From sequence record PZ445134.1: a stretch of DNA of 64,000 bases. The stretch is one strand, 5' to 3'. Under the pieces are notes generated by a model, which was not told the origin of the DNA, searched no databases, and saw only the letters and a program-made list of their open reading frames with translations. This DNA is from a phage. Shown here in pieces: positions 9,034 through 40,254 of this stretch; the stretch's first letter is position 1, and each line of letters opens with the position of its first letter. Made by a program: the position numbers and the translations under genes.

Positions 9034-9504
9034 TTAATCATGTTTCCACACCCCGTCGGTATTTGTCCAAAGTCGCTGATTATCTGATCCTCGCCACAGT
9101 TTTTTGGTCGGAAGATTTTTCTCATACTTCCCATCAATAATAACATCAACATATTTAAGCATTTCTAGTTGTTTAATATCTTCAAACTTATATCCTGTCC
9201 ACAACCAAATGCTTTTATTGGGATAAAGTTTTTTTACTGTTTGAACAATGCAATGAACAACATCTTGGTTATCAGGATAGAGAGGGTCTCCTCCAGTTAT
9301 AGTTAATCCTTCTATATAATCGTTATTCAAACATTCAATTAATTGTTCCAGCGTTTCACCGGTGAATGGGATACCATTTCTAGCGTTCCATGTTGATTTA
9401 TTATAACACCCCTCGCATTTATGCAAACAACCTGTAACGAAAAGAACGACCCTGCAACCGGGGCCATTCACAAAATCGCAAGGATAAAATCTATCATAAT
9501 TCAT
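9034..9504 (-). CDS. nrdG: anaerobic ribonucleotide reductase activating protein NrdG
   Basis: 156 aa; radical-SAM cysteine cluster GCLHKCEGCYN; overlaps nrdD stop. Confidence 0.88.
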   Translation of the reverse strand: MNYDRFYPCDFVNGPGCRVVLFVTGCLHKCEGCYNKSTWNARNGIPFTGETLEQLIECLNNDYIEGLTITGGDPLYPDNQDVVHCIVQTVKKLYPNKSIWLWTGYKFEDIKQLEMLKYVDVIIDGKYEKNLPTKKLWRGSDNQRLWTNTDGVWKHD

Positions 9505-10792
9505 TGGTGTTTAACCCTATGCATGATTTCTTTATTTTTGCCGAGATTAAATCCGCGTTCGTTCGGATTTCCAAGATAACCGCATGTTCTTCTTATTGTG
9601 TTCATCTTTTTAGGATCAGTTTCTCCGCAAACTGAACAAACAAATCCGTTTTCAGTAGGAGTCATTTCATGAGTACTTCCACATGTAAAACATTTATCTA
9701 CTGGCATATTAACACCAAAATAATCTAAATGTTGTGCAGCATAATCCCATACAGCCTCAAGACCTTTTAGGTTATTTTTCATATCAGGAAGTTCAACATA
9801 AGAAATGTGACCACCAGTCGCAATGAAATGATATGGCGCTTCACGAGAAATCTTTTCAAACGGAGTAATATTTTCTTCTACTGAAACGTGGAAACTATTA
9901 GTGTACCAGCCTTTATCAGTAACATCTTTTACACTTCCATATTTTTCGGTATCAAGTTTACAGAAGCGATAGCACAGGTTTTCAGCAGGAGTAGAATACA
10001 AGCTAAAAGCAAAACCGGTTCTTTCAGTCCACTGCTTAAGACGAGCATTCATTTTAGTCAAAATTTCCTGTCCAATATCACGTCCGACAAGAATATTCAA
10101 TTCGTGAATACCAATGTATCCTAAAGACACTGAACTTCTGCCGTTTTTAAATAACTCAATTATATCATCATCAGGTTTAAGACGAACCCCAAATGCACCT
10201 TCTTGGTAAAGAATAGGAGCAACAGTAGCTTTAACTCCTTTTAAGGAACTAATTCTACACATCAAAGCTTCAAAACACAGATCCATTCGTTCATTAAATA
10301 GCTCAACAAATTTCTGTTCATTGAATTGTGTTCCAATATAAGAATCTAACGCAATACGAGGAAGATTCAGTGTTACAACACCAAGATTATTACGCCCATC
10401 AAGAATTTCATTACCAGTCGAATCTTTCCATACGCTCAAAAAACTACGGCAACCCATTGGAGAAACAGGAACAGATGAACCGGTGATAGCTTTATTATTC
10501 TTAACTGAAATAATATCAGGATACATTCTTTTGCTTGCACATTCTAACGCAAGCTGCTTAATATCATAGTTCGGGTCGTCTTTATAAAGATTAACACCCT
10601 CTTCAACGAACATAACAAGTTTAGGGAAAATAGGAGTTATCCCATCGCGACCAAGACCTTTAATACGATTTTTCAGAATTGCTTTCTGAATCATTCGTTC
10701 AGTCCAGTCAGTTCCCGTGCCAAATGTAATGGTTACAAAAGGCGTTTGTCCGTTTGAACTGAAAAGTGTATTTACTTCATCATTATATTCAG
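9501..10792 (-). CDS. nrdD: anaerobic ribonucleoside-triphosphate reductase NrdD, exon 2
   Basis: C-terminal glycyl-radical motif RRTCGYLG and CxxC...CxxC zinc site; 5' boundary is the proposed 3' splice site. Confidence 0.8.
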
Positions 10793-13594: not shown

Positions 13595-13930
13595 TTAACC
13601 CCGGAGTTTATTGAGCTCTTCATAATCAATCCAGGATTCTAGCCCTGACGGCAGGTCACATTCAATGTTCCACAGAAGCTCTTCGATGGCTTGTAGGCGA
13701 TTATATTCTTCAACAGTAATAGTAACCATTGTTTCAGGCTTTTTAACCATCATGTCATTCATCAGAATGTACAGGTCTTCACAAACAGCCGGGTCGTCCC
13801 ATGTCCATATTTCAGCATCTCGAACCAATGAAGTCGGAATCGAATTTAAAACTTCAAGCTTAGTAGGAGCGTCAGGGCCGAGAAGAGTTGCTACAAATTT
13901 ATACGCTCTGGCGAAATCAATATCATTCAT
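13595..13930 (-). CDS. hypothetical protein
   Basis: 111 aa ORF. Confidence 0.45.
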   Translation of the reverse strand: MNDIDFARAYKFVATLLGPDAPTKLEVLNSIPTSLVRDAEIWTWDDPAVCEDLYILMNDMMVKKPETMVTITVEEYNRLQAIEELLWNIECDLPSGLESWIDYEELNKLRG

Positions 13931-14190
13931 TTAAAATATTCTCGCAGTTGGTCGAATCCACCAATGTGACTTCCGTCAGGAGCAAACACTTGAGGCATAG
14001 TCAATCCGACTTGTGATTCACGTCCAAGCTTAACCAGAAGCTCAGCAATTTTCTCATCATCAAAAACACCTTTTTCTGGCATAACATTAATGAATTCAAA
14101 TGGCTGTTTCTTAACAGTCAGCAATCGTTTCGCATTATCGCAATAAATGCATTTATGAATAGTAGAGTCATACCCGTACACTTTAAACAT
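13927..14190 (-). CDS. nrdC: glutaredoxin/thioredoxin NrdC
   Basis: MFKVYGYDSTIHKCIYCDNAKRLL... CxxC motif; resembles T4 NrdC; start moved to MFKVYGY. Confidence 0.85.
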   Translation of the reverse strand: MFKVYGYDSTIHKCIYCDNAKRLLTVKKQPFEFINVMPEKGVFDDEKIAELLVKLGRESQVGLTMPQVFAPDGSHIGGFDQLREYFK

Positions 14191-14596
14191 TATTTTTCCT
14201 TTCATCAATTAAATATGCAATGCCAAATACAATACATGTAATAAAACCTGTGATACAGATAGAAACCAACAACACTGTACCAAAGAACCAAATCAAGTTA
14301 TCTTTAGTAGTTTGTTTGATATCCATCTCACGAATTTCTATAGCTATCGTATCACCTTTATTAAGAAGCGTATAAAACGATGGTGATACATGCCTGTCAA
14401 AAACTCGACCTTGTTCATCTTTATAAACTGCAATAAATTCCAGTTTAGAATATTTTCCTGTAGATTGACCTGAAATTAATTCCACTACCTCCACAGGAAT
14501 TACTTTAGTTTCCATGTAAGTATTCTGGCTGTTCCAAATGAATGGAATGATGGCAAAAACTAAAGCTGTAATAAAACAACGAAGGCTATATCTCAT
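14183..14596 (-). CDS. membrane protein
   Basis: 137 aa with N- and C-terminal hydrophobic segments. Confidence 0.45.
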   Translation of the reverse strand: MRYSLRCFITALVFAIIPFIWNSQNTYMETKVIPVEVVELISGQSTGKYSKLEFIAVYKDEQGRVFDRHVSPSFYTLLNKGDTIAIEIREMDIKQTTKDNLIWFFGTVLLVSICITGFITCIVFGIAYLIDERKNNV

Positions 14597-14901
14597 TATA
14601 ATGTTCTCTCAAATTTGTGGAAGCATTTACGGCATTTCAATTTCAAGTTATCAGTGGTCCAGTTAACCAGTTGGACTTGGATAGTTCCACATTCCGGACA
14701 TGGATGTTTTGCTGCCGATTTGGCAGCATTTTCACGTCGTTCAACCATTTTCATTATTTCGTTCCATGCCGGAGGAACGAACTCTTCTTCACCGTGGATT
14801 TTATCTCGCTGAACAAATTCAATCTTTGAACTATCGTCGATAAACTTAACCAAGCTGTGATTAGTGCTCATGTCAATATCCTCTAAAAGACGTAGTTTCA
14901 T
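14596..14901 (-). CDS. zinc-ribbon protein
   Basis: 101 aa; CPECG...CRKC pairs. Confidence 0.45.
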   Translation of the reverse strand: MKLRLLEDIDMSTNHSLVKFIDDSSKIEFVQRDKIHGEEEFVPPAWNEIMKMVERRENAAKSAAKHPCPECGTIQVQLVNWTTDNLKLKCRKCFHKFERTL

Positions 14902-15851
14902 TATAAAACCTCAATGGCATTTCGTAAACCATCCGCTTTCGCATTCAGAGCTTTTAACGATTTAGTTTTTTCTGCAATCTGGGCTTCGACTTCTTTCAGT
15001 CGAGATTTGAGATATTCGCGTTCTTCTCTTAAATTATCAACTTTTTCTACTTTAGGTTCTTTAATAGGCTTAGGTTTATACGTATTAGGGTTCTTCAGTT
15101 TAATTAGAATGTGTGAACTGTACAGCATTGAACCATTATCTTCGGTTTCGTCATACATTTCCACTACGTCCATCATCTCCACCATCGTGCAGAGTTTATA
15201 AGACAACGAACGAATAGTTTTGTTGTGCTTATTAATTTCTTTAGAGTTCATGGTGCCTAGATTACGCGAGTAGTAATAAGGAACCTGGATATCAATTGTC
15301 AATGATGCGTTACCATTACCAGTTGGTTTGAATACTGCAGTAACCCAATCTTTAACATGAACTTTATTTGTACGACCATCGCCACCTGTGAATAATTTAC
15401 GAGAATGTTTAAAAAGCATATTCACTTGGTTATTGAATTCACAAGCAAATTTATCAGCAAATTTAGTTTCAGGAATGGTAGATAACCAATCAGCCAAGTA
15501 GGTCTTTTTAACATCGTTAACAATAGTAAATTCAACCAAATCGGTTATAGATGTCGCAGTTTTAATGAAGCTCGGCTTCATAAAGTTTTTAATGTTATCG
15601 CGAGCTATAGTAGAAGATAATAAACGAGAACGTTTGAACCATTGAAGCAGTGTCCCTAATGAATGAGAATACGCATTCTGAGTATCTTTACAGATATGAT
15701 TTTCTTGGCCTGTGTATGTACCAAAATCGCGAAGAATACCGCTTACTACAACTCGGTGTGGAACATCAAATCCTAATGAACCAGAAGCACGTTGGGCATG
15801 AACGTTAGCGATAAGACCTGCAAAATAATCAACGTAATGTGAACGTGTCAT
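14901..15851 (-). CDS. hypothetical protein with C-terminal coiled coil
   Basis: 316 aa; last about 55 aa heptad-like (LREEREYLKSRLKEVEAQIAEKTKSLKALNAKADGLRNAIEVL). Confidence 0.5.
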   Translation of the reverse strand: MTRSHYVDYFAGLIANVHAQRASGSLGFDVPHRVVVSGILRDFGTYTGQENHICKDTQNAYSHSLGTLLQWFKRSRLLSSTIARDNIKNFMKPSFIKTATSITDLVEFTIVNDVKKTYLADWLSTIPETKFADKFACEFNNQVNMLFKHSRKLFTGGDGRTNKVHVKDWVTAVFKPTGNGNASLTIDIQVPYYYSRNLGTMNSKEINKHNKTIRSLSYKLCTMVEMMDVVEMYDETEDNGSMLYSSHILIKLKNPNTYKPKPIKEPKVEKVDNLREEREYLKSRLKEVEAQIAEKTKSLKALNAKADGLRNAIEVL

Positions 15852-15874
15852 AATATTTTCCTCTCGTTAAGATA

Positions 15875-15912
15875 GATTCATTATACTCCAACCGTCCTTG
15901 GTTGTAAACTGA
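15875..15912 (-). promoter_or_regulatory. early promoter (PeSL-like)
   Basis: minus strand GTTTAC -35, spacer containing CCAAGGACGGTTGG, TATAAT -10. Confidence 0.5.
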
Positions 15913-15913
15913 T

Positions 15914-16846
15914 TTATGATTTTAATGCATTCATTGCGTTAAAAAGTTTAGAGTACTGCAACTGGAGCTTGGTAACTACTTGTTGAGCATCACGAAGCTT
16001 AGCTTGTGCTTTGTCAAGTTCAACAGACAGTTGGTCCACAGTGGCTTTGATTTGATTATAATAGTAATCTTCGGCAGGAAGAAGACCGTTAGAGATTTCC
16101 AGTTTAGTCGACGGTGTGCCGTTAAACATAACAGGTTGTGCTGAAGCTGCATTAATCTTACCGATAGTCGGGGCGACAATAATTGACGCTTCGAACGTTG
16201 CATTTTCCTTTTTAAGATTTTTATAATATTCAGAGTCTTTGTGCCACCATGGCGCAGGAACCTTTTTACCAATAGATACACGAGCCTGGATAGCGATATG
16301 GCCCTTATTCTTGATAACGTCGATAATATTAAGCTCACGAGAATAAATTGCTTTAATCTGGTGAATATTATCACCTAACACTTCCAACGCTTGGTGGAAT
16401 ACACGAGCAACGTTATCATTCTTAGGTTTATACGTAAGAGTGAACTCATTCTCACTGATAACCATGATTTCTAACTTATCGTAAGTATATTTCAAATGTT
16501 TCATGTTAATTGCTTGAGGACGAATACGAGAAGCAATGGCCATCAAATTGTTAAGGTTATTCCGGAACTGCTTAGCGAAATATTGTCCTTCACCGCCAAT
16601 ACAAAAATTACGAAGTTTCTGTTTGGCTAATAAACGGCTGAACTCACCATTTTTAATGAACTCTTTAACAGGTGTGTTAGTAACGCATTCAAATTGAGTA
16701 AACTTACGAGAAGTAATCCCATAATATGAACAGATTTCCTCAATCTCTTCAGGGGTCTTTACAGGCATACGGATAGGATTAGGTCCTGGAGTATATGCGT
16801 TCGAGGTAAATTCTTTGATAAGTTCTCTACGTGTAATAAAAGCCAT
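15914..16846 (-). CDS. hypothetical protein with C-terminal coiled coil
   Basis: 310 aa; C-terminal LSVELDKAQAKLRDAQQVVTKLQLQYSKLFNAMNALKS. Confidence 0.5.
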   Translation of the reverse strand: MAFITRRELIKEFTSNAYTPGPNPIRMPVKTPEEIEEICSYYGITSRKFTQFECVTNTPVKEFIKNGEFSRLLAKQKLRNFCIGGEGQYFAKQFRNNLNNLMAIASRIRPQAINMKHLKYTYDKLEIMVISENEFTLTYKPKNDNVARVFHQALEVLGDNIHQIKAIYSRELNIIDVIKNKGHIAIQARVSIGKKVPAPWWHKDSEYYKNLKKENATFEASIIVAPTIGKINAASAQPVMFNGTPSTKLEISNGLLPAEDYYYNQIKATVDQLSVELDKAQAKLRDAQQVVTKLQLQYSKLFNAMNALKS

Positions 16847-16869
16847 TTTATATTCCTCGTGTTGAAAAA

Positions 16870-16913
16870 TTTATTATACTCCAACCATCCTTGGTTGTAC
16901 ATCATTCCTTAAG
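16870..16913 (-). promoter_or_regulatory. early promoter (PeSL-like), near-copy of 15875..15912
   Basis: ttattatactccaaccatccttggttgtacat shares about 30 nt with the 15875 cassette. Confidence 0.5.
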
Positions 16914-17897
16914 AAGTTTTACTACTTGAATAAGATTAGCTCGTTCTGTTTTATTTTTACCATTTAAGCCTGCTAATCGTGAGATTTCATCGTCAGTCTG
17001 TTGAATAGTTACATTAAGTTCGTTAATCAAAGCTTCAAAGTATTTGATTTGCTCAGCATGTTTTGATTCAAATTTCTGAACCGGAATAACGTCTTGGTTC
17101 AGTTCATCAATAAGGACTTTAAGAGCATCTTCTTGGTTGATATCGTATTCAATTTCTTTTATTTCTTCAACGAGCTCGTCTTTATATCTAACGTCTTTTA
17201 GTCCTGGTGCTGGTCCTGAAATCTCTTCTTTAAGAGTGCAAACATATCCAATACGGTATCCAATGCCGTCTCGCTTGATATCAACTTCGTCAATAAATCC
17301 ACAATGTTTAAGACCAGAGCCGATTATGTCAAAATATCCTTGACGTCGTCCTTCAAACGTTACACGAACTACTAAGACAGTTTTACCACCGACCTTTTGA
17401 AGCTCACATTTATAAAAGTTTGTTGAACCTGAATAACGTGGATGAGTTTTAAAGTTCATCTGACGATCTAGGCCCATTTGTAAGCGTGCTGATACGGCCA
17501 TAAAACGTGTTTGGTTCTCGTTAAGATGAGCAACAATCCATTTCAAAGGCATTTTACACTGTTCACGACCGAACAAATCAGTACGTCCTAGATTACGCAG
17601 GATGTTGTTAGAGTTAATCATCGACAGAACGTTAAGTTTATTCAGCGCGCTGAAGATTCCATCGGCCATTGATTTTCCGTAACCTTTACACGCTTTAATA
17701 AGCGCTCGCGGTAGATTAGTATAGATTTCAGACGGCATATGAAAATCAAATTTACTAGTCAGTAATTGATGAACTTGGATAGCAATTTGCTCATAATTAA
17801 GTGCTCTGCGATCATTATGATCTTTAAACCACACTTTAATCTGTGAAGCACATAAACCGTTAATTTCATGTTTTACCGCATCAGATGTAATGCTCAT
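16902..17897 (-). CDS. hypothetical protein with C-terminal coiled coil
   Basis: 331 aa; C-terminal coiled-coil-like tail. Confidence 0.5.
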   Translation of the reverse strand: MSITSDAVKHEINGLCASQIKVWFKDHNDRRALNYEQIAIQVHQLLTSKFDFHMPSEIYTNLPRALIKACKGYGKSMADGIFSALNKLNVLSMINSNNILRNLGRTDLFGREQCKMPLKWIVAHLNENQTRFMAVSARLQMGLDRQMNFKTHPRYSGSTNFYKCELQKVGGKTVLVVRVTFEGRRQGYFDIIGSGLKHCGFIDEVDIKRDGIGYRIGYVCTLKEEISGPAPGLKDVRYKDELVEEIKEIEYDINQEDALKVLIDELNQDVIPVQKFESKHAEQIKYFEALINELNVTIQQTDDEISRLAGLNGKNKTERANLIQVVKLLKE

Positions 17898-17927
17898 ATC
17901 TATTTCCTCAGATTGAATTGGAACTCA

Positions 17928-17958
17928 AAACCATTATAACCCGTCCTTGGGTAAAGCG
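17928..17958 (-). promoter_or_regulatory. early promoter (PeSL-like)
   Basis: cattataacccgtccttgggtaaag: -10 TTATAATG, -35 variant CTTTAC. Confidence 0.4.
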
Positions 17959-17959
17959 T

Positions 17960-18487
17960 TTATGCGTGAACCGTCTTTAAACGTTCTTCAAATTTCCGAA
18001 GAGTACTAATACGTTCTGCTTTCTGTTTTGTATAGTTTGCAATACGTTCTGAAGTGAGAGCGTATCGTTCATTTACTGTTTCTTTCATGAAGTCAGGGAT
18101 TTCACGAGAAGCTTTAATTTCATCAAACTTATCGAGTACTGCCTGGTCTTCAGCGATTAAATTTTCGTACATCTCGATATCTTTCTTGATAAACTCGATA
18201 TCTTCCTGGGTTACTTTGGATAAACGAGATGCTTTATCCTTTTTGTACTGCTCGTTAGTTTCACGAGACCAGAATAATGTACGTTTTTTGTTAGTGTTTT
18301 TGTAGACTTCCACAATTCCAACTGAATCGATGATAGCAATCCAATTCCAGCGAGATTTGAAAATCTGACCTCCATCCACGGTAATCTCGTTACCATAAGC
18401 AACGTCATTAAAGAACTTGCTTTGTGCTTCAGATTTAAATTTACCGTCGTTATAATTTACCAGGTTGAAAATATCTTTAGCGTTCAT
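17960..18487 (-). CDS. hypothetical protein
   Basis: 175 aa ORF. Confidence 0.45.
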   Translation of the reverse strand: MNAKDIFNLVNYNDGKFKSEAQSKFFNDVAYGNEITVDGGQIFKSRWNWIAIIDSVGIVEVYKNTNKKRTLFWSRETNEQYKKDKASRLSKVTQEDIEFIKKDIEMYENLIAEDQAVLDKFDEIKASREIPDFMKETVNERYALTSERIANYTKQKAERISTLRKFEERLKTVHA

Positions 18488-18504
18488 GTTTTACCTCCAG
18501 TAGT

Positions 18505-18545
18505 TGATAGGTCTATAATAACATAACCATAGACCTTGTAAACAA
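18505..18545 (-). promoter_or_regulatory. early promoter with dyad symmetry (PeSL-like)
   Basis: minus strand GTTTAC, 17 bp, TATTAT; inverted arms AGGTCTAT/ATAGACCT. Confidence 0.55.
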
Positions 18546-18833
18546 CTAAAAGAAACTTTTTTCGGTATTTTTTCCACTGAACCAAACCGATTTCGGAATT
18601 TTCTGTAATTTTTCAGATTTAAGTTTCTCTTCCTGTTCTTTCTTATATGCATCCTTGTCGTACTGGAACAACTCTAAGGCATTCTTTTGTAGACGGTCTA
18701 AGGTAATTAAGGCTTTAGTTTTTCCTTTCAAGGAAGAGTCCTGGCGAACCTCCTCGCTATATTGCATCGTAGAACTAACCATACGATGAGCATACAGTTC
18801 GACTGCGGCTTTAATTTTTTGCATAAAATCCAT
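18546..18833 (-). CDS. hypothetical protein
   Basis: 95 aa ORF with SD AGAGG. Confidence 0.45.
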   Translation of the reverse strand: MDFMQKIKAAVELYAHRMVSSTMQYSEEVRQDSSLKGKTKALITLDRLQKNALELFQYDKDAYKKEQEEKLKSEKLQKIPKSVWFSGKNTEKSFF

Positions 18834-18971
18834 AACATAGCCTCTTTGATTTGTACAACATTATTTTTAAATATTTCTATGCCCTCAGTAGGTTCCTGGT
18901 GTCCTTCTTTGAGGTAAGCCATATGATTATTCATCTTTATGGCTTTTGTTACCTCAGAACTTCCTATAAGC

Positions 18972-19973
18972 TTATTTCAGTAAAGTAACTTCCGAGATTT
19001 CCTCCCAACCATCTTTATCAGTTGAAATAAAATCTGCTACGTAAAGAGCCGTACGTAATGATACATTGCGAAGACGAGATACGTTAGCCTTCATCCAGGA
19101 CAATGCTTTATACGTTTCTGCATCTGTCAGACCACGTTTCTGCATCATGTCAGTAGATAATATTACATCTTCAACTCGAACCATAATCTCTTCATTAGAG
19201 TGTACTCCAAGGTCGAGATACACTGAACGAGATACTAAAGCTTGAAGGTGCGGGGCAAGCTTCGAACCGCGTTCTAACTCTTTATCGATATCAACGTTTG
19301 TAATGAAAACGATAGTACCTTCAAACTCAAATTCTTTATCAATACCCTTATCATCGAGATAAGATGACGCAGTGCTCCAGCAAACTTTGCGTTTATCTCC
19401 GGTATCTAATGCTGCTTTAAGAAGGTTCAAGATGTCCATATCTGAGAATACGTCAACGTCGTCGATTAAGAGAACGCTGTCTGCATCACGGTTGAGCCAA
19501 AGTTGTTCGTAAAGGCCAATACCGGAGATTTTACCATTAATGCTTTTGTATTTGATGAAACCATTATCATTAGCATTATTAAGTGCTTTATCCAGAGAAT
19601 ACGTCTTACCAATACCAGCTGCACCTGAAATAATGAGTGAACGAATTTTGCCATCGATAATGCCATTCGTCATCATGTTCATTACTTTAAAGCGTTTGTT
19701 GATACGAGTTTTCATATCTTCAGTGCTTTCAACAACTGAAACTGGTGACGTCTCAGCTCCTTCCATTACGATGTCTGATTTGAAGACCCATACTCCACGT
19801 TCAGAACCATCAATCATAACGAAAATTTTACCATCACCTAAGTGGGAACATTCAGGATTAAGCTTTGCCGGAAACCATGTCTTTGTGGCAACATAAGAAC
19901 CAGAGATTTCGTTATTACGATAGATACCTTTTTTGATTTGAACGTTGAACATTTTATTCTCCAATTTACTCAT
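18972..19973 (-). CDS. P-loop ATPase (AAA-like)
   Basis: 333 aa; Walker A GAAGIGKT and Walker B VLLIDDVD. Confidence 0.6.
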   Translation of the reverse strand: MSKLENKMFNVQIKKGIYRNNEISGSYVATKTWFPAKLNPECSHLGDGKIFVMIDGSERGVWVFKSDIVMEGAETSPVSVVESTEDMKTRINKRFKVMNMMTNGIIDGKIRSLIISGAAGIGKTYSLDKALNNANDNGFIKYKSINGKISGIGLYEQLWLNRDADSVLLIDDVDVFSDMDILNLLKAALDTGDKRKVCWSTASSYLDDKGIDKEFEFEGTIVFITNVDIDKELERGSKLAPHLQALVSRSVYLDLGVHSNEEIMVRVEDVILSTDMMQKRGLTDAETYKALSWMKANVSRLRNVSLRTALYVADFISTDKDGWEEISEVTLLK

Positions 19974-19984
19974 TTCGTTTCGAT

Positions 19985-20020
19985 AGGTTTATAATAACAT
20001 GTTTAAAGCAAAAGTAAACA
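19985..20020 (-). promoter_or_regulatory. early promoter
   Basis: minus strand GTTTAC, 17 bp spacer, TATTAT. Confidence 0.5.
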
Positions 20021-20021
20021 A

Positions 20022-20240
20022 TTATTTGCGACGAGATTTTTTGGTAAGAGGTTGAAAGAACACTGCTTTACCTGCAGGAGTCAAAGTAACTCGTAATGCA
20101 TTACCGATTCCCAAGGATGCTTTAACAAGACCTTTAGATTTCAGTTCACCGAATGCTTGACGTTGGTCTGCATCACGAGTGTTAACCATAAGACCTTTAT
20201 CACCAGCTTCACGAATCATTTCTAACATTTTGGTTTTCAT
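20022..20240 (-). CDS. small putative DNA-binding protein
   Basis: track ORF 20022..20297 trimmed to MKTKMLEMIRE with SD GAGGAG; 72 aa; winged-helix-like composition is a guess. Confidence 0.4.
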   Translation of the reverse strand: MKTKMLEMIREAGDKGLMVNTRDADQRQAFGELKSKGLVKASLGIGNALRVTLTPAGKAVFFQPLTKKSRRK

Positions 20241-20261
20241 TTTGTTCTCCTCTTGTTTTGA

Positions 20262-20298
20262 TAGGTCTATAATAACATATCCTAAAAGTATGTACACT
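20262..20298 (-). promoter_or_regulatory. early promoter
   Basis: minus strand GTGTAC -35 variant, 18 bp, TATTAT. Confidence 0.4.
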
Positions 20299-20316
20299 AC
20301 TTTTTAAAAATATTTT

Positions 20317-38786: not shown

Positions 38787-38809
38787 TTTGTTTACTCCTC
38801 TGTAGTTGA

Positions 38810-38848
38810 TAAGTCTATAGTATCACCGTCCTTGGTGCTTGTACATCA
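38810..38848 (-). promoter_or_regulatory. early promoter
   Basis: minus strand ATGTAC -35 variant, TACTATAG -10, CCAAGGACGG element in spacer. Confidence 0.4.
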
Positions 38849-38855
38849 TTATTTT

Positions 38856-39188
38856 TTAATTTTTCCAACTTAACAACTTGTAGTGTCCTTCATTAATACG
38901 TGGTTTATCCCAAGAAATACTAATATATGATTCACTGTCAATAGAAGTCGCCGGGTTTTTCTCTACCGTAAGACCTTCACTTTCCAGCCATTCAATAGTA
39001 TTTGCGCATAAATCAGAAGAACACCTCATCGGAAACCGGCAAGATTTTTCACCTTTAGCTGCAGTGTTATACATCTTTTCTAAAATACGCTTTTGCACGT
39101 TTTTAAAAATAGTTTCAGCAGATTCTTCAGATTTTTTATTCAGTTCAGTATAAAGACTCATAACATTCTTCTCATTAATAGGGCTCAT
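38856..39188 (-). CDS. hypothetical protein
   Basis: 110 aa ORF. Confidence 0.45.
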   Translation of the reverse strand: MSPINEKNVMSLYTELNKKSEESAETIFKNVQKRILEKMYNTAAKGEKSCRFPMRCSSDLCANTIEWLESEGLTVEKNPATSIDSESYISISWDKPRINEGHYKLLSWKN

Positions 39189-40097: not shown

Positions 40098-40172
40098 TGG
40101 TATCCCGCCCTGGGATCGAACCAGGACCGCAAACTTAGAAGGATCGTATGCTATCCATTACACCAGCGGGAT
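40098..40172 (-). tRNA. tRNA-Arg (anticodon TCT)
   Basis: hand-folded cloverleaf: acceptor ATCCCGC/GCGGGAT, D-loop AATGGATA, anticodon loop CTTCTAA, T-arm CCTGG-TTCGATC-CCAGG, encoded CCA. Confidence 0.7.
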
Positions 40173-40177
40173 GTAGT

Positions 40178-40254
40178 TGGTGACCCCGACCAGATTTGAA
40201 CTGGTAACCTTTCCCTTATGAGGGGACTGCTGCTAACCATTGAGCTACAGGGCC
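40178..40254 (-). tRNA. tRNA with anticodon CAT (Met or Ile2-type), atypical D-arm
   Basis: acceptor GGCCCTG/CGGGGTC with two G-U pairs, anticodon loop CTCATAA, T-arm ACCAG-TTCAAAT-CTGGT, encoded CCA; D-stem pairs poorly. Confidence 0.5.

Follow-up and report, generated by a model that had tools for sequence, protein, structure and literature searches.

Three adjacent genes of a Mosigvirus-like phage as probable divergent paralogs in a superfamily spanning T4 NrdC.3 to NrdC.6, with a predicted coiled-coil tail in common

In a stretch of 64,000 nucleotides (nt) of phage DNA (sequence record PZ445134.1), referred to here in its entirety as the window, three adjacent open reading frames (ORFs) on the minus strand encode proteins of 316, 310 and 331 amino acids (aa) (Table 1), just as an earlier note made from the sequence alone had described and as the ORF list bears out. 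Profile comparisons and alignments argue strongly that the N-terminal parts (heads) of these proteins are homologous, and that the trio very probably consists of divergent paralogs belonging to one fast-evolving superfamily of accessory genes. As supported by these comparisons, the superfamily comprises NrdC.3, NrdC.4, NrdC.5 and NrdC.6 of T4 together with relatives that occur as single copies in phages of the Karamvirus, Moonvirus and Winklervirus types. The explanation that we consider best overall, and hold with moderate confidence, is that these are paralogous early cassette genes whose role is probably one of counter-defence.

Each of the three genes can be assigned to a family with a T4 namesake. 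The 316-aa protein is the ortholog of T4 NrdC.3, with which it shares 57% identity (E 1e-120; PHROG match at E 8e-104), and 33 of its 33 homolog clusters carry PF26897. The 310-aa protein matches the hidden Markov model (HMM) of DUF7235, the Pfam family of T4 NrdC.5, with E 2.7e-111 and 372 bits (cut-off 30) over the full profile (positions 1-307); for T4 NrdC.5 this model gives E 5e-126, and the RB69 ortholog of the 310-aa protein is annotated as NrdC.5. It resembles T4 NrdC.5 in being a full-length DUF7235 protein, in locus, in early-gene context, in its head-plus-coiled-coil architecture and at the very end of its tail (SKLFNAMNAL versus SKLNNALNAL), but differs from it in sharing only 24% identity with it (BLASTP, 308 aa, E 6e-10) and in that the T4 tail is longer by one heptad. 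T4 NrdC.6 has a divergent homolog in the 331-aa protein (29% of 270 aligned aa identical by BLASTP, E 2e-18; PHROG match at E 4e-126), which in tblastn is approximately 33% identical to the NrdC.6 of Tequatrovirus (587 records) and, unlike T4 NrdC.6, retains the full coiled-coil tail that has been lost in T4. Specifically, T4 NrdC.6 (275 aa; positions 9067-9894 of the T4 locus, L002) is without most of the tail, which is kept by its homologs, namely P0061 and those of JS98 and the window; one such tail-keeping relative of T4 NrdC.6 has 284 aa and is 52% identical to it. T4 NrdC.4, a clear paralog of NrdC.3, has no counterpart in the window phage; in T4 the early ORFs for NrdC.3, NrdC.4 and NrdC.6 are located between nrdC and nrdC.7. 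The DUF7235 HMM gave no match to the 316- or the 331-aa protein at E up to 0.1; these two carry PF26897 and PF26899 in the source database, are linked to DUF7235 only at the superfamily level, and PHROGs likewise split the trio over separate families of unknown function.

What, then, connects three proteins that family resources keep apart? Pairwise BLASTP among them returned nothing below E = 0.17, which agrees with the remark in the earlier note that their N-terminal parts are not obviously similar. The further suggestion made there, that they might be divergent paralogs, draws its support from HMMs built without the tails and from collinear motifs. The sample consisted of 19 T4-like loci anchored on nrdC.10, from which every ORF of 230-400 aa between nrdC.10 and gene 49 was taken. 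In a leave-one-family-out test, the last 65 residues were removed, a superfamily HMM was built from the other families, and the left-out family was sought among some 900-1000 decoy ORFs. Every family was recovered ahead of all decoys, the best of which reached only E 0.008 to 0.5, leaving 5-9 orders of magnitude between the top member of a family and the top decoy. The best members scored E 3e-7 for NrdC.3/NrdC.4 (T4 NrdC.4), E 3e-9 for the NrdC.5 family (T4 NrdC.5, 2.8e-9), E 1e-8 for the NrdC.6 family (a JS98 NrdC.6), E 3e-12 for group G338, E 3e-7 for group G347 and E 2e-8 for group G355/G366. When only the N-terminal parts of the NrdC.3 and NrdC.4 families were compared with hhalign, they aligned over about 205 columns with a probability of 98% (E 1e-12).

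It is conceivable that the three genes are instead unrelated ORFans that gained a coiled-coil or charged helical C-terminus independently, in which case the profile similarity would be an artefact of coiled coils or composition. The silence of pairwise BLASTP, hhalign probabilities below 10% for several family pairs, two repeat or coiled-coil false positives in a large-library search and a first round of HMM comparisons inflated by a chimera would all fit such an origin. We nevertheless regard it as highly improbable, given that chimera-free and tail-less profiles recover every family so far above the decoys, that collinearity of the motifs starts as early as the N-terminal K-T-R-x-E-Y, and that locus, size and promoter type are common to the three genes. 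The inflated first round concerned apparent links between NrdC.3 and NrdC.5 (E 1e-14 to 1e-24 by HMM and hhalign), which proved spurious; they came from a chimeric sequence, P0033, in the alignment of NrdC.3, and the comparisons given here are those made once it had been taken out. P0033, encoded on a 167-kb phage contig, is itself a natural in-frame chimera, in which the middle of a T4-type NrdC.5 is fused to the C-terminal ~175 aa of an NrdC.3 at the junction FNKVN|MLFKH; the junction points to a deletion that spanned nrdC.4 via short microhomology. A group of ORFs of ~260 aa (G260), adjoining the single-copy members in divergent phages, was likewise considered and set aside, as neither HMM nor hhalign comparison linked it to the superfamily.

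A MAFFT alignment of 20 representatives reveals what all families have in common. The N-terminal part begins with K-T-R-x-E-Y, followed in the same order throughout by F-x-x-S-R-L-L-S...N-F, a helix ending in A-S-R-L and then G-D-x-R, and an amphipathic helix ending in D-V-V-E; the C-terminal part consists of a variable linker and a tail that ends in R-x-K-L-x-x-A-h-x-x-L. The common architecture, as read from the alignment, is an N-terminal helical bundle, a small alpha/beta part, a variable Pro/Lys-rich linker and a terminal coiled coil of 6-7 heptads, the structural details of which come from low-confidence models and are to be taken as provisional. In the AlphaFold2 (AF2) model of the 316-aa protein, residues 1-85 form a 5-helix bundle with predicted local distance difference test (pLDDT) scores of 80-90, and the middle is poorly modelled; the 310-aa protein was modelled with a 12-sequence family alignment, and both models, though poor, present their secondary-structure elements in the same order. 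Searched against BFVD with Foldseek, the 316-aa model found full-length matches solely to T4-like phage proteins of 300-370 aa (TM-scores 0.19-0.27), namely from Serratia phages PS2 and CBH8, Acinetobacter phage Acj61 and Salmonella phage Melville, of which CBH8 has a member of group G347 as defined by sequence. A sequence search of the PDB assigned no solved relative, structure prediction was too weak for the assignment of a fold, and an NCBIfam search returned nothing useful for nrdC.3, nrdC.4, nrdC.6 or DUF7235.

The second element that unites the trio is the C-terminus. The earlier note had described heptad-like tails on all three proteins and had proposed coiled-coil prediction as a check, and this prediction is positive for each of them. 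A heptad-register score calculated in 28-residue windows peaks at the C-terminus in every case, over a heptad tail of 45-53 aa, and 300 shuffles of the whole protein never yielded a score as high. By eye, the a and d positions are occupied by L, I, V or M through some six heptads, and AF2 places a single terminal helix at residues 275-315 of the 316-aa protein (41 residues, pLDDT 70-81) and one at residues 257-309 of the 310-aa protein (53 residues, low confidence). Within families, the tails are conserved beyond the heads (71 versus 57%, 43 versus 29% and 58 versus 31% identity), the first pair of values referring to the 316-aa protein compared with T4 NrdC.3 and the last to the 331-aa protein compared with its JS98 homolog. 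Where tails of different families differ by insertions or deletions in the MAFFT alignment, these amount to exactly 7 residues, i.e. one heptad.

Do the tails bring the three proteins together? The coiled coils might form a hetero-oligomer or dock on one common partner, the latter being the other possibility raised in the earlier note, such that the trio would act as a single complex; the tail-end motif common to all families, the status of the tails as the most conserved part within families, and the adjacency and probable early co-expression of the genes would all suit such co-assembly. Hetero-assembly cannot be obligatory, however, because Karamvirus-, Moonvirus- and Winklervirus-type phages have a single member at the locus. 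Moreover, nrdC.5 of T4 rescues a large-deletion mutant on a Dsr1 host when supplied alone from a plasmid (see below), the tails are just 16-29% identical between families, and that of T4 NrdC.6 is truncated. On balance, co-assembly of the trio appears improbable, and divergent paralogs that need not act together remain the reading that we prefer.

The distribution of these genes in related phages, which the earlier note had also put forward as a check, amounts to between one and four copies per genome at the same locus. T4 has four members as against three in the window phage; Mosigvirus has three (of the NrdC.6, NrdC.5 and NrdC.3 types), JS98/Dhakavirus three (of the NrdC.6, NrdC.5 and NrdC.4 types), and the Enterobacter/Kosakonia/Edwardsiella phages, the Citrobacter Moon/Merlin-type phages and the Serratia CHI14-type phages have one each. 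The window itself is, judging by its sequence, a Mosigvirus-like T4 relative: the 3-kb stretch with the trio shares 98.7% identity with Escherichia phage vB_EcoM-RPN187 and ~98% with phage AV112, a classified member of Mosigvirus. In phage records searched with tblastn, the NrdC.3 type was found in 654, the Mosigvirus allele of NrdC.5 in 142 and the NrdC.6 type in 742. Some Tequatrovirus copies of NrdC.3 share 75-78% identity with the window allele, as against only 55% for that of T4 itself (tblastn); since these identity bands do not follow genus, allele exchange is indicated. A three-family profile, built from a superfamily alignment (A5) in which motif 1 was misaligned, retrieved only 12 proteins at E <= 1e-3 from 1.84 billion cluster representatives, and these, two repeat false positives aside, were members or fragments. 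As far as is visible from such searches, the superfamily thus appears to be confined to T4-like phages.

How are the genes expressed? All three have a GAGG-type Shine-Dalgarno sequence 6-9 nt 5' of the ATG. The earlier note had ascribed to each its own promoter and to two of the promoters about 30 nt in common. The second of these claims holds, in that the promoters of the 316- and 310-aa genes share 23 nt, ACCAAGGAYGGTTGGAGTATAAT (0 and 1 mismatch; 0 chance matches expected), lying within a 44-nt direct repeat of 84% identity (family D2; one copy at 15863-15906). The first holds firmly for these two genes and less so for the 331-aa gene, whose element has the atypical spacing TTTACC-N11-TATAAT and has only CCAAGGACGG in common with the other two; the same element, with the extended -10 sequence TGGTATAAT, also stands 5' of JS98 nrdC.6 and T4 nrdC.7.

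The promoters of the 316- and 310-aa genes match the published description of PeSLs, i.e. the repeated early-promoter-plus-stem-loop cassettes of hyperplastic regions (Arbiol 2010, PMC2839356; Comeau 2014, PMC4122927), in which the stem-loop is usually located between -35 and -10 or over -10, whose promoter consensus in the PST/T4 pair is TTTACW-N17-TAYWAT, and which have been proposed as mediators of modular shuffling (PMC2839356; PMC4122927). Like PeSL cassettes, those of the window are repeated intergenic units with an early sigma-70-like promoter and a spacer stem-loop, followed by a Shine-Dalgarno sequence and ATG, that flank variable ORFs, and the genes lying between the repeats vary from phage to phage. 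Unlike the published PeSLs, their stems are only 4-5 bp long and weak, with a conserved AAGGAY loop. In the 316-aa gene promoter the spacer carries the inverted repeat CAACC-AAGGAC-GGTTG, predicted to form a 5-bp hairpin of -6.2 kcal/mol, and the same hairpin in the 310-aa gene promoter is predicted at -6.9 kcal/mol. The general form of the inverted repeat between -35 and -10 is xCC-AAGGAY-GGx', the loop being conserved and the flanks varying in a complementary manner: CAACC/GGTTG (AACC/GGTT) in these cassettes, CATCC/GGATG (ATCC/GGAT) in the JS98 type, AGCC/GGCT and CCAC/GTGG in T4, and CACC/GGTG at window position 38826. The main evidence for the putative stem-loop is this covariation, not stability. 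Taken together, the sequence patterns make it quite likely that at least the 316- and 310-aa genes are independent early cassettes, each with its own PeSL-type sigma-70 promoter.

Table 1. Positions in the window of the three genes, their predicted tails and upstream elements, and two neighbouring genes
Feature	Position	Strand	Remarks
316-aa gene, T4 nrdC.3 ortholog	14901..15851	minus	PHROG 1435; Pfam PF26897 listed by source database
310-aa gene, Pfam DUF7235 (T4 NrdC.5 family)	15914..16846	minus	Pfam HMM match
331-aa gene, divergent T4 nrdC.6 homolog	16902..17897	minus	PHROG 2257; Pfam PF26899 listed by source database
Coiled-coil tail, 316-aa protein, residues 267-316	14904..15053	minus	heptad z = 4.7
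Coiled-coil tail, 310-aa protein, residues 258-310	15917..16075	minus	heptad z = 4.7
Coiled-coil tail, 331-aa protein, residues ~281-331	16905..17057	minus	heptad z = 2.9; supra-threshold extent 281-309
PeSL-type early sigma-70 promoter, 316-aa gene	15880..15908	minus	TTTACA-N17-TATAAT; 11/12 consensus matches
PeSL-type early promoter, 310-aa gene	16873..16901	minus	TGTACA-N17-TATAAT; 10/12 consensus matches
Atypical upstream element, 331-aa gene	17933..17955	minus	TTTACC-N11-TATAAT with CCAAGGACGG; begins 5 nt past nrdC.8 stop codon
NrdC.7-like membrane ORF, 137 aa	14183-14596	minus	between nrdC.2-like ORF and nrdC
NrdC.10 homolog, P-loop NTPase	18972-19973	minus	weak AAA/STAND-type Pfam matches below gathering cut-offs

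What purpose might such an array serve? A large-deletion clone of T4 does not infect a host that carries the Dsr1 sirtuin (NADase) defence, and the early gene nrdC.5 of T4, expressed from a plasmid, restores infection of this host by the deletion mutant; the region is dispensable, and T4 deletes it freely at a cost in host range (Srikant 2022, PMC9391042). The counter-defence reading is favoured because the 310-aa protein belongs to the Pfam family of T4 NrdC.5, because the region is dispensable, because the genes combine extreme divergence with copy-number variation and allele exchange, and because a conserved tail is joined to a fast-evolving head. Such proteins would work as oligomers by virtue of the coiled coil, the faster-diverging head binding a host protein. 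Since T4 NrdC.5 counteracts Dsr1, the 310-aa protein would most likely inhibit a Dsr1-like or another host immune protein, and the 316- and 331-aa proteins would most likely be sister counter-defence factors with other targets. By analogy with T4, we consider the chances of a counter-defence role to be about even for the 310-aa gene, and propose the same role only tentatively for the other two.

Many T4 early genes encode host-shutoff factors. Perhaps, then, the trio are paralogs that act as early takeover or regulatory factors directed at host transcription, replication or metabolism, the effect of NrdC.5 on Dsr1 being indirect or lineage-specific. This would accord with the many shutoff factors among early genes and with one GenBank record (H124) in which an NrdC.6-like gene bears the label 'inhibitor of host transcription', which is, however, an unsupported automatic annotation; it would also accord with the literature searches, which found no published mechanism or follow-up for NrdC.5. 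On the other hand, the genes are dispensable, T4 deletes the region at the expense of host range, and an arms race would be expected to leave just such a pattern of extreme divergence, variable copy number and shuffling of alleles between genera. A takeover role thus seems unlikely to us, and counter-defence by paralogous early cassette genes is retained as the preferred explanation.

Several observations nonetheless pull in the other direction and temper both the paralogy and the proposed function. In the leave-one-out test the window proteins themselves scored weakly (E 0.003, 0.08 and 0.11), yet no decoy ranked higher; since their own scores are weak, their membership of the superfamily rests on transitivity, through clear within-family links, and on the pooled profile. 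To this must be added the low hhalign probabilities of some family pairs already mentioned. The AF2 models are poor (mean pLDDT 39 for the 310-aa and 57 for the 316-aa protein), so that a common fold is not demonstrated. The 331-aa gene is without a canonical promoter, and the hairpins predicted in the spacers have little thermodynamic stability (-5 to -7 kcal/mol, z +0.3 to -2). With only 24% identity to T4 NrdC.5, the 310-aa allele may have a different target. Finally, literature searches gave nothing useful on the function of NrdC.3, NrdC.4 or NrdC.6, and the trio is known here from its sequence and from predicted models.

The locus is the hyperplastic region of T4-like phages between nrdC and nrdC.8/nrdC.10, and the neighbours of the trio in the window are the nrdC thioredoxin gene, a nrdC.2-like zinc-ribbon ORF, a nrdC.7-like membrane ORF, nrdC.8, nrdC.9 and the P-loop ATPase gene nrdC.10. 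In the GenBank records of AV112, PHB12 and others (compare window 13927-20000), all genes from nrdC.1 to nrdC.11 are annotated as 'thioredoxin', a character that only the 93-aa nrdC possesses. For the trio this identity is not borne out, as none of the three proteins matched the thioredoxin or glutaredoxin families of Pfam; the label arose because the name was propagated from the positional names nrdC.x. The nrdC.7-like membrane gene occupies a different place in the window phage than in T4, where nrdC.7 is located between nrdC.8 and nrdC.6, and the PeSL that stands 5' of nrdC.7 in T4 is found 5' of the NrdC.6-like gene in the window; to judge from this arrangement, it looks like the relocation of a cassette. 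The NrdC.10 homolog is highly conserved (70-99% identity) in all T4-like loci fetched, whereas its neighbours are not.

A second family of promoter-plus-stem-loop repeats occurs in the window at 18504-18562, 19980-20038 and 20258-20316, 5' of nrdC.8, of nrdC.10 and of the next gene. Here, an 8-bp core inverted repeat, AGGTCTAT/ATAGACCT, surrounds the -10 box, and the structure is stronger, the hairpin predicted for the RNA having 11 bp (-13.4 kcal/mol, z = -4). Cassettes of the AAGGAC-loop type are also encountered elsewhere: far from the nrdC region, on the minus strand at window 38790-38870, a TGTACA-N17-TACTAT promoter is combined with an AAGGAC loop and a CACC/GGTG stem, and in another locus (L136) the cassette precedes unrelated small ORFs. 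Two neighbouring tRNA genes, Arg(tct) and Met(cat), are found at window 40098-40254 on the minus strand.

What is the significance of these relationships? Neither the genes nor the promoter cassettes are of a new kind. The link of NrdC.3, NrdC.4, NrdC.5 and NrdC.6 into one superfamily with a common coiled-coil stalk appears, by contrast, to be absent from the family databases consulted, which treat the trio as three unrelated families of unknown function. The superfamily turns the lone genetic result on T4 nrdC.5 and Dsr1 into a testable hypothesis for the whole gene array and names the parts to swap or mutate, i.e. the head for specificity and the tail for assembly; for phage-therapy genomics, it offers a rationale for differences in host range between near-identical T4-like phages. 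One may go further and speculate, with rather low confidence, that the superfamily is a modular counter-defence array, in which a conserved oligomerising stalk, possibly of mixed paralogs, would carry quickly diversifying heads, each a trap for a different immune sensor or effector of the host, with PeSLs aiding the swapping of heads between genera. If this were true, the locus would serve T4-like phages as a general, programmable platform against host immunity, with Dsr1 as its first known target.

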